IMG/VR virus record: IMGVR_UViG_3300008108_005860
From: an uncultured virus (IMG/VR IMGVR_UViG_3300008108_005860)
Lineage: Duplodnaviria > Heunggongvirae > Uroviricota > Caudoviricetes
DNA length: 37,875 bases
Strand: one strand, 5' to 3'
Shown here: in pieces, positions 2,704-8,542 of the stretch
Layout of the letters: the number at the start of each line of letters is the position of its first letter
How positions within the stretch are numbered: the stretch's first letter is position 1
The notes under the pieces: generated by a model
Told to the model about the DNA's origin: nothing
Databases searched by the model: none
The model's input: the letters and a program-made list of their open reading frames with translations, nothing else
Translations under genes and position numbers: made by a program

Positions 2704-3573
2704 ATGGCATTGGCCGCACCCAGAAACTACCTAAACAACCGCGATTTACTGAAAGAAATACACCTAAGCAAAAACACCTACTGCTATTACGCTGACAGAA
2801 CACAGGATCATCAGTATGACATCATCTTGGCCAGTGTTGCCAAGATCAATCGCAATACCATAGCCGAAGCACGCAGAAATCGTGCAGCCAGACTGACCAA
2901 GGAAACTGGCGCAGAAGTCAACGAAAAAAAGATTCCGCACACGGATTTGGTGTTTCGCATCATGACCTGGGAGCATATTCCCATGGCGCCTAAAAAAGTG
3001 CCCAAGGCACAGGCCAAGAAGAAATCCGTGGAAGAACTGTTTGGCTGGGAAGAACTGCCTGAAGAAGATCCCTTGGCCGAAATAGTGGACATCGTGCCCG
3101 AAGAAGAACCCGTGGCACAGACACATATCAGATTGAACTTTCCGCCGTTTGAACACTTCCGGCTCACGGAAGACAAAGATCCTTACATCGTGGGCCGCAG
3201 CCACTGGTCCGGAGATCTTGACACCGGAGTGTTTTGCAAAGAACACGGCAAGATGACCAACAAACTGGCACATATGTTTATCAAACTGTGCGAGCGCTAT
3301 GCCACCCGATCAAACTGGCGTGGTTATACCTACAACGAAGAAATGCGCGGCACCGCACTGCTGCAATTGAGCCAGATTGGATTGAAGTTTGATGAATCAA
3401 AATCAGACAATCCTTTTGCTTACTATACCGCGGCCATAACCAATTCCTTTACTCGTGTGCTCAACGAAGAAAAGAAAAATCAAAACATCAGAGATGACAT
3501 ATTAGAAATCAATGGACTCAATCCCAGTTGGACAAGACAAATGTCCAATCAGACTGTGAAGTACGAAGAATAA
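2704..3573 (+). CDS. gp55: Late-transcription sigma factor
   Basis: NYLNNRDLL start, NWRGYTYNEEMR and FDESKSDNPFAYYT motifs; lies directly upstream of gp47/gp46 as in T4-like phages. Confidence 0.85.
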   Translation: MALAAPRNYLNNRDLLKEIHLSKNTYCYYADRTQDHQYDIILASVAKINRNTIAEARRNRAARLTKETGAEVNEKKIPHTDLVFRIMTWEHIPMAPKKVPKAQAKKKSVEELFGWEELPEEDPLAEIVDIVPEEEPVAQTHIRLNFPPFEHFRLTEDKDPYIVGRSHWSGDLDTGVFCKEHGKMTNKLAHMFIKLCERYATRSNWRGYTYNEEMRGTALLQLSQIGLKFDESKSDNPFAYYTAAITNSFTRVLNEEKKNQNIRDDILEINGLNPSWTRQMSNQTVKYEE

Positions 3574-3591
3574 CTGCTACACTAGCACTCT

Positions 3592-4608
3592 ATGGATAAA
3601 CTTTTCAAGAAGGCTGCTGTCTTTACGGACATCCACTTTGGACTCAAGTCCAACAGCCAACTGCACAATGAAGACTGTTTGAATTTCGTAATCTGGGCCA
3701 CTGCCGAGGCAAAAAAACAAGGCTGTGAAGTGGCCATGTTCTTGGGAGACTGGCACAACAATCGTGCCAACATCAACATCGTAACACTAAATTATAGTTT
3801 ACGAGCCTTAGAACATCTCAATGACAACTTTGATGCTGTTTATTTTATTCCTGGGAATCATGACCTGTACTATCGCGATCGTCGTGATATTCAAAGCGTG
3901 GCTTGGGCTAGACACTTACCGCGAGTTAATATTGTCAACGATTGGTTTAGTGGCGGTGATGTTGCTATCTGTCCTTGGCTCGTTGGCGAGGATCATAAAA
4001 AGCTTCGTTTCCTAGACAAGCAGTATGTGTTTGGGCATTTTGAACTGCCCACATTCTTGATGAATGCCATGGTAGAAATGCCCAGCCACGGTGAACTGTC
4101 CGCAGATGATCTGGCCAGTGCAGGCCACGTGTTTTCCGGACACTTTCATATGCGGCAGACCAAAAAGAATGTGACCTACATAGGCAACTGTTTTCCGCAC
4201 AACTACGCAGATGCCGGCGACGATGCTCGCGGACTCATGATCTTGGAGTGGGGGCAACAGCCTGTGTATCATGCCTGGCCCGACCAGCCCACTTATCGTG
4301 TGATGAATCTCAGCACTGCGATTGATTCTGCGGATCAGGTTTTCCGCTCAGGTATGCACGCTAGGCTGCAGTTGGACATAGACATATCCTACGAAGAAGC
4401 CAACTTTATCAAAGAAACGTTCCACGAAAAATACAAACTTAGAGAAGTCAGTCTGATACCCAACAAGATGCAAGGCGTTGAAACAGATCTAGCACCAGGC
4501 AATGTGAAGTTTGAATCAGTGGATCAGATCGTCACACAGCAGATCACAGACATTGGCAGCGATCATTATGACAACAAGCTGCTGTTGGAAATATGGCATA
4601 GACTATGA
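3592..4608 (+). CDS. gp47: Recombination nuclease subunit (Mre11/SbcD-like)
   Basis: Metallophosphoesterase motifs DIHFG, GDWH, GNHD, GHF and SGHFH; overlaps the next gene by ATGA. Confidence 0.92.
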   Translation: MDKLFKKAAVFTDIHFGLKSNSQLHNEDCLNFVIWATAEAKKQGCEVAMFLGDWHNNRANINIVTLNYSLRALEHLNDNFDAVYFIPGNHDLYYRDRRDIQSVAWARHLPRVNIVNDWFSGGDVAICPWLVGEDHKKLRFLDKQYVFGHFELPTFLMNAMVEMPSHGELSADDLASAGHVFSGHFHMRQTKKNVTYIGNCFPHNYADAGDDARGLMILEWGQQPVYHAWPDQPTYRVMNLSTAIDSADQVFRSGMHARLQLDIDISYEEANFIKETFHEKYKLREVSLIPNKMQGVETDLAPGNVKFESVDQIVTQQITDIGSDHYDNKLLLEIWHRL

Positions 4609-6368
4609 TACGCATCAACAAACTCACTGTGAAAAACTTCATGAGTGTGGGCAATACCACACAAGGTATCGACTTTGATCGCCAGGATCTAACCTTGGTC
4701 TTGGGCGAAAATCTAGACCTTGGTGGAGATGGTTCGCGCAACGGCACAGGCAAGACCACTATCATCAATGCTTTGAGTTATGCGCTATATGGGCAGGCCC
4801 TGACCAACATACGTAAAGACAATCTCATAAACAAGACCAATGCCAAGAACATGATTGTGAGTTTGGATTTCAATGTGAACAATCAGCGATATCGCATTGA
4901 GCGTGGACGCAAACCCAATGTACTTAAATTCAGCATTGACGACGAAGTACAGCAAACCGAAGATGACAACAGCCAAGGTGACTCAAGAGAAACACAGTTG
5001 GCTATAGAACGCACCCTGGGCATGACCCACGATATGTTCAAACACATCTTGGCACTAAACACCTACACAGAACCTTTTCTAAGCCTCAAAGCCAATGACC
5101 AGCGTGCCATCATTGAACAGTTGTTAGGTATCACTTTGTTGAGCGAAAAAGCAGATCTGCTCAAGGAAGAAATGCGTGAAACCAAAGACGCCATGAGCCA
5201 AGAAGAGCATCGTATCAAAGCCATGATCGAAGCCAATCGCCGCATGGAAGAGCAGATAGAAAGTTTGAAACGCAGGCAAACTCTTTGGATCAACAAACGC
5301 GACGAAGATATCACTGCACTACAACGTCAAGTGGATGAACTTGGCCATCTAGACATAGAAGCAGAACTGCAGGCGCATCGTGACTTATTGGCCTACAATC
5401 AGCGTGCCAAAGATCTCAAAGATCTTGGTGCTGCCATTGCTCGTGGGCAAACCGACGCTGGTCGCGAGTCTCGGCTGATAGACAAGATCACCAAAGAGAT
5501 AGCCAGCCTACAGGATCATCGCTGCCACGCCTGCGGTCAGGATCTACACGATGCTGATCACGGCAAGATGCTGACCAGCAAACAGCAAGATCTATCACAG
5601 TCACAAGCAAACTTACAAAAGATCAATCAAGATCTTGCAGAGTTATCCCTGGCAGTCACAGCAGTGGGTCCGCTGGGCACACAGCCCAAGGTGTATTATG
5701 ATCAAGAAGCAGATGCGCACGAGCATCGCAGTAGACTGGCCAGTGCCGAACTGAACTTGAAAAACAAACAGGCCGAGACAGATCCTTATGCAGAACAGAT
5801 TGAAGAAATGCAGCAACAGGCCTTGGTTGAAATCGACTATGATATGGTCAATCAACTGAAACGATTGCAGGATCATCAGGACTTCTTGCTGAAACTGCTG
5901 ACCAGCAAAGATTCGTTTGTGCGCAAAAAGATCATTGATCAGAATCTCTCATATCTCAACAGCAGGCTCACACACTATCTAGATCGCATAGGCCTGCCGC
6001 ACACAGTGGTATTCCAAAACGATCTAACTGTACAGATCACAGAACTGGGCCGGGACCTGGACTTTGACAATCTTTCGCGCGGTGAGCGCAATCGCTTGAT
6101 ACTGAGTCTGTCCTGGGCGTTTCGTGATGTGTGGGAAAGTTTATACTCGCCGGTGAATGTGTTGTTCATTGACGAACTGATAGATTCTGGTATGGATTCA
6201 TCGGGTGTGGAAAATGCTCTGGCCCTGCTGAAGAAAATGACCAGAGAGCGCAACAAAAGTGTTTGGTTGGTGTCGCACAAAGACGAACTGGCCGGACGTG
6301 TGGAAAACATATTGAAAGTGGTCAAAGAAGGTGGCTTTACTTCCTATGCCACTGATGTGACCAATTAA
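4605..6368 (+). CDS. gp46: Recombination ATPase subunit (Rad50/SbcC-like)
   Basis: Walker A NGTGKTT, coiled coil with CHAC zinc hook, signature LSRGE, Walker B LFIDE, H-loop SH. Confidence 0.93.
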   Translation: MIRINKLTVKNFMSVGNTTQGIDFDRQDLTLVLGENLDLGGDGSRNGTGKTTIINALSYALYGQALTNIRKDNLINKTNAKNMIVSLDFNVNNQRYRIERGRKPNVLKFSIDDEVQQTEDDNSQGDSRETQLAIERTLGMTHDMFKHILALNTYTEPFLSLKANDQRAIIEQLLGITLLSEKADLLKEEMRETKDAMSQEEHRIKAMIEANRRMEEQIESLKRRQTLWINKRDEDITALQRQVDELGHLDIEAELQAHRDLLAYNQRAKDLKDLGAAIARGQTDAGRESRLIDKITKEIASLQDHRCHACGQDLHDADHGKMLTSKQQDLSQSQANLQKINQDLAELSLAVTAVGPLGTQPKVYYDQEADAHEHRSRLASAELNLKNKQAETDPYAEQIEEMQQQALVEIDYDMVNQLKRLQDHQDFLLKLLTSKDSFVRKKIIDQNLSYLNSRLTHYLDRIGLPHTVVFQNDLTVQITELGRDLDFDNLSRGERNRLILSLSWAFRDVWESLYSPVNVLFIDELIDSGMDSSGVENALALLKKMTRERNKSVWLVSHKDELAGRVENILKVVKEGGFTSYATDVTN

Positions 6369-6406: not shown

Positions 6407-6916
6407 ATGCCATCAAAAAGTAAATCCAAAGGAAGCAGTTGGGAACGAGCAGTAGCCTTGCACCTAACTGAACTCTATGGAGAAACTTTTACCCGTGTGC
6501 CCAATTCAGGCGCATACATTGGTGGCAAGAACACACATCGCAAACAAACACTACACGAAGGTCAGATCCGCGCTTTCAAAGGCGACATCATACCCGGGCA
6601 GAGTTTTCCGCGATTCAATTGTGAATGCAAGTCGTATGCAGACTTTCCATTCCATCAACTGTTCCAAGGGCAGGTTGCTGTTTTAGAAACGTGGCTTGAT
6701 CAACTGATGGACGTTGCCGATCCCGGTGACTACAACATATTGATCATGAAATTCAATCGCAAAGGCAAATACATCGCAACTCAGGCTCACAGAGACCATC
6801 TCCTATCTAGACAATTCAACTACGGCTCCATCAAACACGATCATTGGTATATCATGGATTACGATCAGTTCTGGGAAACAAACGCTGATCTAGTCCGGCA
6901 GTATTGCGCTGCCTAA
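6407..6916 (+). CDS. Holliday-junction resolvase-like PD-(D/E)XK nuclease
   Basis: SKSKGSSWER...GDI...ECK pattern of Hjc-type resolvases; adjacent to gp46. Confidence 0.75.
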   Translation: MPSKSKSKGSSWERAVALHLTELYGETFTRVPNSGAYIGGKNTHRKQTLHEGQIRAFKGDIIPGQSFPRFNCECKSYADFPFHQLFQGQVAVLETWLDQLMDVADPGDYNILIMKFNRKGKYIATQAHRDHLLSRQFNYGSIKHDHWYIMDYDQFWETNADLVRQYCAA

Positions 6917-6936
6917 CTACAGAACCCTACAATACG

Positions 6937-7300
6937 ACCTGCGCTGGCTGCTGGAATGCCAGTCTCCAAGATGGACCCTCTGGGCCCTGGGTGTGGAGAG
7001 TCACCGCAATCGATGAGTTAGCACATATCCATGCTCCTAGAGCGAAAAATGTAGCACAAAAGATGCAGGCACTGTGAAAAAGAAACAACCTGCGCTGATC
7101 CGGGATTCGTCAGATGGGTCCAGGGTCAGTACCGTTGAAATGAACGCTGAAGTAGGGGGTACCGGTCAACCGCCTCCGTGTAGTGTACCAGACTACAATC
7201 TTCTTAATCTGACGGCTCTTCCAGGTGACGGGAAAACTCTGACCATGGCAAGCGATAGTTCACCCGCCCAGGGTGAACTACGGCTCAAGGCTCTGGGAAA
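6937..7300 (+). ncRNA. Candidate large structured ncRNA with pseudoknots (family not recognised)
   Basis: At least nine local stems plus long-range complementarities 7108-7115/7207-7214 and 7000-7005/7224-7229; several G-U pairs favour the + strand. Boundaries are approximate. Confidence 0.6.
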
Positions 7301-7341
7301 TCAGTTTAAAGTAACAAAGGTTTTGACAGTAAACTTTAGGA

Positions 7342-7393
7342 TGAACTAAGTTCAGATGAGCGCAAGCGAAATCTGAAGATCACGCAGTGATCT
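7342..7393. repeat. Palindrome plus two adjacent hairpins
   Basis: TGAACT-A-AGTTCA (7342-7354); TTCAGAT...ATCTGAA (7351-7377) enclosing GAGCGCAAGCGAA; AGATCAC-GCA-GTGATCT (7377-7393). Confidence 0.8.
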
Positions 7394-7453
7394 ATAAACA
7401 GTGTGAGACTCGTGCTTGAGAAATGACATACCCTGACTTGACTGTGACCAAAA

Positions 7454-7690
7454 TTAAAAGAATGGCAATCCAGACTTCTTGGTGGTTTCCATGTGCTGTT
7501 TGGTCATGTCATTGAACAATTTGCGATCGGTGGGACTGAGATAGAATGCATCTTCGTAAGATATACCACCACGGCTAAGCCATGATATTTCCCACATTTC
7601 GCTCCTAATACCGTTGATGTCTCGATCCATTTTTGACACCAACTGTTCAATCGATTCTTGATCTAGTACTAGGAGCTGCGCCCGAAAAAA
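7454..7690 (-). CDS. Small baseplate-hub/tail-chaperone ORF, probably expressed as the -1 frameshift extension of the upstream gene
   Basis: Frame is open from the T-TTT-TTC heptamer at 7690-7684 to TAA at 7454. The WLSRGGISYEDAFYLSPTDRK motif resembles the small second part of myovirus tail chaperones. An independent start at 7642 or 7630 is possible. Confidence 0.65.
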   Translation of the reverse strand, partial: FFRAQLLVLDQESIEQLVSKMDRDINGIRSEMWEISWLSRGGISYEDAFYLSPTDRKLFNDMTKQHMETTKKSGLPFF

Positions 7691-8508
7691 TTTGATAGAT
7701 CCAACACCAGGGGTTGTTCGTAGTCCTTGCTACAGTGACTACAGGTCAACTTCAGCGGTTTGAGATTGCTGGCACTGCGTTTGGCAATGGCAGCATCTTT
7801 GATAGCATTGAAAATCTGACTGCTACAGTTGGTTAAAAATTCCAAGATCTGTGATTCATCATCTACTATGACATCATCGGTGCGTATGCTACCAATGCTG
7901 CGACTCAGTGCTTTGATGGTTCCTTCGGTTACTTTCAAAATGAGATCATTGATCTGTTGCAGTCGATCAGCATTGGTAAGATCTGCTGTGGGCATGATTT
8001 CTGCTAGTTTTTGCTCGTTGAAGTGATCTTGATTGGTTTCGTTGATTTCTTTATAGGTCAAAGGTCTGAACATGATTTCAAAGTTGCCAATCACTGTGGA
8101 TTTTTGATACTCGCTGCGGCCTATCATGGCCAGCTGATGGTTTAGATCTATCACATACTCTGATGTTTCTTGACAGTGCGTGCAGGATCCAGTGACATCT
8201 ATGTCCTTGCCGTAGGTGGCAATCTTGATGGCTATCAACATAGCGTCAAGATCGATACTGGGCACTGCCCAGGCATTTTTCACATTGGGTATGCAACTCT
8301 GTATGAGACTGATCACACTGGAGCCGTTGAACAGCGCATCAGGAGTCTTGTTCAGTATCTCATCCCGCACAGTCATGGGATACACTGGAAGTTCTCCGTT
8401 TTCAGGCATGTCAAGATCATTGGGTCCATAGTGTAGTCCGTTTGAAGGTAGTCGCAAAAATATCGTGGGCTGCCTAAAATAGCGAGTCAAAGGGTTAAAA
8501 GATGTCAT
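7669..8508 (-). CDS. T4 gp26/gp51-family baseplate hub assembly protein
   Basis: LRLPSNG...PMTVRDEI...DLDAMLIAIKIATYG, two CxxC pairs (CTHC, CSHC), ends in NFF. ATG 8508 preferred over TTG 8535 because of promoter position. Confidence 0.75.
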   Translation of the reverse strand: MTSFNPLTRYFRQPTIFLRLPSNGLHYGPNDLDMPENGELPVYPMTVRDEILNKTPDALFNGSSVISLIQSCIPNVKNAWAVPSIDLDAMLIAIKIATYGKDIDVTGSCTHCQETSEYVIDLNHQLAMIGRSEYQKSTVIGNFEIMFRPLTYKEINETNQDHFNEQKLAEIMPTADLTNADRLQQINDLILKVTEGTIKALSRSIGSIRTDDVIVDDESQILEFLTNCSSQIFNAIKDAAIAKRSASNLKPLKLTCSHCSKDYEQPLVLDLSNFFGRSS

Positions 8509-8519
8509 TTTTCTGTCCA

Positions 8520-8542
8520 ATAAATAAGGTAACACTACTTAT
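8520..8542. promoter_or_regulatory. Overlapping divergent late promoters
   Basis: ATAAATA on + (8520-8526) and ATAAGTA on - (8542-8536) between divergent ATGs at 8508 and 8555. Confidence 0.65.

Follow-up and report, generated by a model that had tools for sequence, protein, structure and literature searches.

The largest intergenic gap in a 37,875-nt stretch of viral DNA (the window) holds a large, conserved, pseudoknotted element on the + strand, a description that is supported and to which no full Rfam family corresponds. About 460 bases long and non-coding, the element is retained by a large group of jumbo phages from fresh water. It is real and partly known, through the RF01718 motif that forms its 5' domain in about half of the members; its core, repeats and tail are new to the literature searched. 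We hold the question about evenly balanced whether it is an RNA-primed replication origin, with a self-anchoring primer resembling the RNA II of ColE1. To our knowledge, the start of replication in T4-like jumbo phages has been little described, and large bacterial ncRNAs without a known function are few and seldom easy to test. The element offers these phages a named candidate origin and offers Polynucleobacter-1, an orphan motif for 15 years, a function hypothesis. It can be tested, since culturable bacteria hold copies and cultured phages have similar gaps, and if its 7-nt repeat were a swappable guide, it would amount to a small RNA-guided DNA-invading module.

Genomic setting and architecture

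The window comes from a virus record of 99.9 kb that is about 25% complete and carries T4-like genes. The gap (6917-7453) lies between a RusA-like resolvase gene on the + strand, the final gene of a gp55-gp47-gp46 run, and a convergent 62-aa ORF followed by a gp26-like hub gene. The first-pass annotation, made from the letters alone, had called it the only long intergenic gap; it is the largest of the window, and a second one of 337 nt is present. No credible gene was found in 6917-7453, the overlapping 91-aa ORF at 7074-7349 being without a PHROG match. The resolvase is a neighbour rather than an obligate partner, and other genes are interposed between it and the element in many relatives. 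In most relatives the 62-aa ORF stands 3' of the hub gene on the same strand. Elsewhere in the record, outside the window, a 6,033-aa ORF occupies the minus strand (G000:C1:33196-51297). The features are as follows.

2651-2678, + strand: sigma-70-like promoter (TTGACA, 16 nt, TAAAAT) before gp55; read from the sequence, function predicted
2704-6368, + strand: gp55 late sigma, gp47 (SbcD-like) and gp46 (SbcC-like) genes; PHROGs
6407-6916, + strand: RusA-like / PDDEXK_15 resolvase, the upstream neighbour; PHROGs
6937-7060, + strand: variable 5' domain; Rfam covariance model (CM) and HMM of 5' domains
7065-7093, + strand: P1 stem GCAGG/CCTGC with a purine-rich loop; two-sided changes
7094-7130, + strand: P2 hairpin, with the 5' strand of pseudoknot 1 in its loop (7108-7115); alignment and covariation
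7134-7138, + strand: 5' strand of pseudoknot 2, GTTGA, partner 7166-7170; covariation
7149-7203, + strand: junction closed by GAAG/CTTC, holding P4 (7155-7177) and a variable hairpin (7179-7197); alignment and covariation
7207-7214, + strand: 3' strand of pseudoknot 1; covariation
7230-7246, + strand: region of repeat copy 1; family parse 7240-7246 or post-hoc parse
7256-7280, + strand: strong hairpin between the repeats; two-sided changes
7295-7301, + strand: repeat copy 2, GGGAAAT; repeat parse
7302-7350, + strand: A/T-rich spacer, with an A-run in most homologues; alignment
7351-7377, + strand: tail hairpin 1, a stem with tandem GA/GA and GC-GCAA-GC, predicted to be a single-stranded DNA structure; motif
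7378-7392, + strand: tail hairpin 2, with a C-GNA-G triloop, likewise predicted as single-stranded DNA; motif
7454-8535, - strand: convergent 62-aa ORF (7454-7642) and gp26-like baseplate hub gene (7669-8535); PHROGs and ORF reading

Judged from its sequence, the promoter at 2651-2678 is the likely source of a transcript running into the element; between 6300 and 7700 no promoter-like site was seen. The Rfam scan that had been proposed for the window gave no match at the gathering thresholds and five at chance level with E<=10. The best E-value was 1.5, to unrelated families; RNase P, group I/II introns and known self-cleaving ribozymes gave no Rfam match here or in the homologues scanned, the first two being classes to which the first-pass annotation could not assign the element. 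Neither Rfam nor ARAGORN detected tmRNA, the latter finding no tRNA or tmRNA in the window near the element. By blastn, the element matched none of the annotated phages and plasmids, and PLSDB plasmids gave no match either.

Core fold, matched repeats and tail

All stems and distant complements listed in the first-pass annotation are present on direct reading. Folding of the single sequence is near chance, with an MFE z of -1.80 and 4 of 100 shuffles equally good; the minus strand gives -0.28 and the extended interval 6937-7395 gives -2.06. Likewise, we counted 39, 10 and 1 distal perfect complements of at least 5, 6 and 8 nt, compared with 36.2, 9.1 and 0.6 in 60 shuffles. The case for the fold thus rests on homologues. 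In a sequence-only alignment of 16 chosen loci, a 60-pair structure shows two-sided changes at 39 pairs. Its covariation score is 0.408, against 0.185+-0.013 for shuffled and at most 0.145 for slid controls, the slid comparison favouring the structure since it was derived from the same sequences. A 109-sequence alignment analysed by MI/APC served only as a lead because it mixed subfamilies.

Several of the stems first read by eye are borne out by this alignment. Two-sided changes occur at 4/5 pairs of GCAGG/CCTGC (7065-7093), 2/4 pairs of GAAG/CTTC (7149-7203), 6/10 pairs of the hairpin 7256-7280 and 1/5 pairs of GGGGG/CCTCC, which is 95% paired. The 7094-7130 stem changes on both sides at 7/8 pairs, and only 57% of its cells are paired because the alignment slips. 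The alignment contains many G-U pairs. By contrast, CGTT/AACG is 56% paired and falls away, its bases pairing with TCAAC at 7166-7170 instead. Among the three proposed loop pairings one survives covariation, 7108-7115 with 7207-7214 (two-sided changes at 5/8 pairs), and two fail: GCCCA/TGGGC is 51% paired and unsupported, and GGTGAC/GTCACC is 65% paired and kept only via G-U in L003, the sole distinct close relative. The remaining stems of that reading score 0.122 versus 0.093; the 5' stems at 6944-6999 and TTCC/GGAA were found only in the window's own subtype. The 3' limit of 7300 given earlier was about 90 nt short, as the element reaches about 7392.

The surviving loop pairing is pseudoknot 1, which forms a helix of at least 7 pairs, G-U allowed, in 58 of 66 parsed representatives. 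Its mean duplex energy is -9.7 within a sequence versus -6.2 across sequences; the own partner is the best in just 11/66, because many relatives share loop sequences. A new pseudoknot 2 joins 7134-7138 to 7166-7170, with pairs 1-4 present in 69/69 parsed representatives and pair 5 in 67 (9 of the 78 were unparsed). Its three variable positions reach a Watson-Crick mean of 2.88 versus 1.50 shuffled, and among closest relatives all 23 of 23 two-sided changes are compensatory. The P4 loop, TACCG-GTCAAC-CG, is the most conserved loop.

Downstream of the core, 7-nt direct repeats flank the hairpin 7256-7280, and the two copies change in step across homologues. In the 71 of 78 representatives that could be parsed, 6.6 of 7 positions are identical between copies, against 4.56+-0.11 in shuffles (maximum 4.96), and 17 different exact 7-mers occur among representatives. 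Comparison of 35 disjoint pairs of closest relatives yields 54 double changes, 48 of them identical, and 20 changes confined to one copy; when four doubtful parses, the window's included, are dropped, the remaining 31 pairs give 44/47 identical and 4 single-copy changes. The window is an exception in that its copy 1 by the family parse (7240-7246) matches copy 2 poorly; a post-hoc parse, GGGAAAA at 7230-7236, matches at 6/7. No complement of the repeats lies within 270 nt. With two identical copies and no internal complement, the simplest explanation is that the RNA of one copy pairs with the template strand of the other. A K-turn/box C-D reading of the repeats was rejected, the would-be G at 1b being A in 30/71.

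To judge by its motifs, the 3' end resembles structured single-stranded DNA more than RNA. GNA triloops and tandem GA pairs are DNA-stabilising. The motif of tail hairpin 1 occurs in 56/78 representatives and C-GNA-G in 38 of 53 second hairpins; tail GNA triloops number 41 on the + strand versus 3 on the minus strand. Core loops are of the GNRA type (29 on the + versus 1 on the minus strand; GNYA 3). This split of loop types by region points to an RNA body with a single-stranded DNA tail.

Distribution in phages and bacterial islands

We estimate that about 1,500 IMG/VR stretches match the core pattern. Among 134 distinct pattern matches, syntenic ones included, 120 still reach 10 bits or more once the pattern is masked. 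Three near-complete genomes of 338-347 kb carry one copy each, at the junction of gp46/resolvase and baseplate hub; five large records hold one pattern match apiece, and G001, G002, G007 and the window's own record one HMM match each. The core motif is found in 33 of 80 loci that have a relative of the resolvase. A second subfamily, with 17 aligned loci, is alike in its P1 stem, its two pseudoknots and its tail and has a TACAG-N-AACCG loop. Most of the other loci are without the element inside 3 kb. In the complete genome G007, the sole such locus scanned genome-wide, it lies about 4 kb off, at the hub junction. The resolvase-hub gaps of L042, L048 and L057-L080 contain a strongly diverged subfamily without HMM cross-match to the window; P1, pseudoknots, repeats and tail are as in the window's family, and the 5' domain type is common to some first-subfamily members. 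The upstream gene is co-oriented in 69/71 loci, though its identity varies. L090 and L097 are rearranged, the nearest upstream ORF being on the opposite strand, and a promoter-like sequence precedes the element in both (sigma-70-like in L090, TATAAGTA in L097).

By HMM, Polynucleobacter-1 (RF01718) fills the 5' slot in 58 of 120 family members; by CM it was found at 4/20 and 14/20 chosen loci. Conversely, 81 of 93 viral pattern matches to RF01718 have the core about 190 nt downstream, the other 12 resembling chance matches in coding sequence. Taken together, these two counts (58/120 and 81/93) indicate that the motif is the first third of the element in one subfamily. The window itself lies below the RF01718 gathering threshold (37 bits), with no match at E<=10, and its 5' domain gave no match with the HMM of 5' domains. 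The suggestion of an undescribed phage RNA thus holds insofar as no full Rfam family covers the element, and fails where, in about half of the members, the 5' domain is the known motif. The Rfam model of Polynucleobacter-1 spans 141 nt and is without the pseudoknotted core, repeats and tail that the element has. In its original description the motif is a table row marked as possible cis-regulatory, with no function and no part downstream of it given in the accessible portion of that paper (Weinberg et al. 2010, PMC2864571). The name was confined to that one paper in the literature searched, which describes neither core, repeats nor tail, the supplements of two large screens (PMC10690425, PMC5737381) being covered in part. 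The accessible part of PMC13282480 has nothing on such origins.

The same motif leads into bacteria: within the genus of G102, 17 of 151 genomes score above cut-off for RF01718, and within its order 4/151 do. In these loci the core is diverged, and the two pseudoknots, the matched repeats and the tail are all present. A divergent DUF6641 gene lies upstream in 20/21 of them and a tyrosine recombinase downstream, inside the flank, in 15/21; one DUF6641 protein at 89% identity is assigned by name to Polynucleobacter. Of 60 distinct DUF6641 loci in metagenomes, 54 carry the element, with 34 of 41 parsed repeat pairs identical, and in at least four of the remaining six the tail is kept behind a different body. 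At L541, L542, L543, L557, L560 and L563, the place of the Polynucleobacter-1 domain and core is taken by a small ORF together with a different, shorter non-coding body that is conserved. L479, L481-L501, L535-L537 and L541-L620 are integrase islands with divergent DUF6641, element and short tyrosine recombinase. L481 lies close to tRNA-Met and bears a C5 methylase block; on the bacterial chromosome, at L481:1467-19746, a palindromic 23-nt TGTCGTTTTAAACGACA-type repeat is scattered in seven copies.

No Rep family scored above cut-off among the 21 and 30 island ORFs scanned with Pfam, which may miss a small Rep. A sub-threshold Rep match (E 0.006) lies upstream at one distant DUF6641 locus that lacks the RNA, a single weak hint in the sequence that Rep and RNA might fill the same slot. 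The DUF6641 model (pLDDT 79) had no PDB match at E<=0.001, and in the Atlas DUF6641 meets DUF6641 clusters only. The strict core pattern, which misses the diverged island form, gave no independently supported match among 120 fetched from bacterial genomes.

Two cultured phages, PA5oct and Sinorhizobium phage Phosso, have ORF-poor gaps of 1.0-1.5 kb at the same junction.

L538:6480-7990, minus strand: PA5oct gap
L540:6987-8000, minus strand: Phosso gap

In the gp46 direction both show, by eye, short repeats that surround a hairpin or lie close to it, a long stem bearing tandem GA, and a second hairpin. A perfect sigma-70 promoter stands upstream of the PA5oct gap, and an annotated RNase HI gene directly downstream of that of Phosso. 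PA5oct, Phosso and SCTP-2 gave no HMM match, and the first two no Rfam match. Among the four ncRNAs in Table 1 of a PA5oct RNA-seq study, none falls in the equivalent gap, as far as the accessible part of that source goes (PMC7318152). Any likeness of these gaps to the element would be by analogy only.

Function and comparison with known systems

A replication primer, one of the roles floated in the first-pass annotation, is now the best supported, from repeats, tail, single copy and islands. Matched repeats, spacer, DNA-type hairpins, single copy and Rep-less islands together suggest a ColE1-like primer origin. Transcription of the gp55-47-46-resolvase operon would run on through the element, on the + strand, as a 3' trailer, and the element's pseudoknotted core would fold so as to expose repeat copy 1 as a 7-nt single strand. 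The RNA of copy 1 would pair with the template DNA strand at copy 2, giving a persistent RNA-DNA hybrid beside the A/T-rich spacer. A 3'-OH for leading-strand synthesis could then be left by the RNA itself or by RNase H activity, be it the host's or that of a T4-type phage enzyme, and the displaced + DNA strand might form the GA/GA and GNA hairpins, loading helicase and primase. Several points weigh against this reading: T4-like phages have a replisome of their own, so that a PriA-type site may be dispensable, RNase HI was not found in five phage genomes, and the window's repeats match poorly under the family parse. GC skew changes no sign at the element in three genomes; it tracks, and is dominated by, the coding strand and is thus uninformative. 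Small shares are held by 12 metatranscriptome runs; among the contigs of four of these, two span 7059-7243 and 7162-7333 at a depth of about 3, like coding genes, so the discrete + strand transcript sought did not appear. Reverse transcriptase (PF00078) is absent from 5/5 genomes, three of them near-complete phages, on which ground a retron, DGR or DRT ncRNA was rejected.

Other readings take up parts of the same evidence. Two nested pseudoknots surround invariant unpaired residues, and a 7-nt guide is the size in group II EBS1 and HYER ribozymes. Copy 1 has just this size, no RNase HI was found in five phage genomes and no Rep in the islands scanned. The core could on these grounds be a ribozyme whose copy 1 guides, without protein, nicking of template DNA at copy 2 or cleavage of its own RNA; we hold this unlikely, since no Rfam ribozyme matched the window or 42 related sources and the invariant loop differs by subfamily (TACMG in phages versus GACAG in islands). 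Such a guide-using ribozyme may be a sub-mechanism of initiation, or may have a packaging or recombination role. A shade less probable is the fuller form of a catalytic RNA with a programmable 7-nt guide that would find and invade its own gene and make a primer end or nick, a protein-free initiator and single origin in a major freshwater jumbo-phage clade and Rep-less islands. Partnership with the adjacent nuclease, also raised in the first-pass annotation, is unlikely because other genes often sit in between. Somewhat further down in our estimation comes an RNP scaffold or tandem protein-binding site for packaging, late transcription or recombination, with the repeats as sites for one protein or trans-acting nucleic acid. 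It would suit a position between gp55/gp46/resolvase and the structural block and the similar TGAC...AYCY text 5' of both repeats; yet freely varying positions still match between copies, which protein sites rarely need, and the islands share no protein with the phage loci.

The DNA-type tail and the want of a clear transcript in the metatranscriptome contigs would also fit an element that acts throughout as single-stranded DNA, be it a recombination site or a large single-strand origin. Covariation hardly separates ssDNA from RNA motifs, according to the accessible part of PMC5737381. Against this quite improbable reading stand the core preference for GNRA over GNYA, the many G-U pairs, and an orientation that follows the co-oriented upstream gene or the element's own promoter-like sequence. 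Equally improbable, in our view, is a cis-regulatory 3' trailer or a bidirectional terminator/stabiliser at a convergent junction. Neighbours are indeed convergent in 49/71 loci, but the downstream gene is co-oriented in 20/71, the upstream gene is divergent in islands, the element has no + strand T-run terminator, and its structure goes far beyond a terminator's needs.

The ColE1-like primer origin finds its closest counterpart in RNA II, which is of similar length (555 nt) and likewise a structured transcript with an A-run and then a hairpin. The 13-nt tail motif (YGA-GC-loop-GC-GAR) occurs at ColE1 L358:1331 and at 7357-7370 of the window; of its only two matches in all of ColE1, this one stands on the RNA II-sense strand some 135 nt past the origin A-run, and its hairpin is presumably part of pas/ssiA. 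Sequence likeness is limited to this motif, the core HMM giving no match to ColE1 (NC_001371). RNA II is reportedly anchored by a G-tract/C-tract direct repeat, as Masukata and Tomizawa are said to have found in 1990, whereas the element has a variable 7-nt repeat, and its tail begins only 50-60 nt past the repeat. It further differs in its two pseudoknots, with no fold homology found, and in its host, a jumbo phage or integrase island rather than a plasmid; neither RNA I nor Rop came to notice. In the accessible parts of the ColE1 literature, RNA II forms a hybrid that RNase H cuts, and it then primes synthesis, exposing ssiA (PMC11012335, PMC3167613); the initiation steps are also given in PMC5778457. 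ARRPOF, GEBRO and PAGEV are large structured motifs of replication regions, acting as RNA or ssDNA, in the accessible part of Weinberg et al. 2017 (PMC5737381); they are plasmid-borne, and the element has no Rfam match to any of them. GOLLD and ROOL, large pseudoknotted phage ncRNAs in the same accessible text (PMC5737381), likewise show no Rfam match to the element, which has no tRNA near it in the window and stands apart from both by its single copy, its fixed junction and its DNA-type tail.
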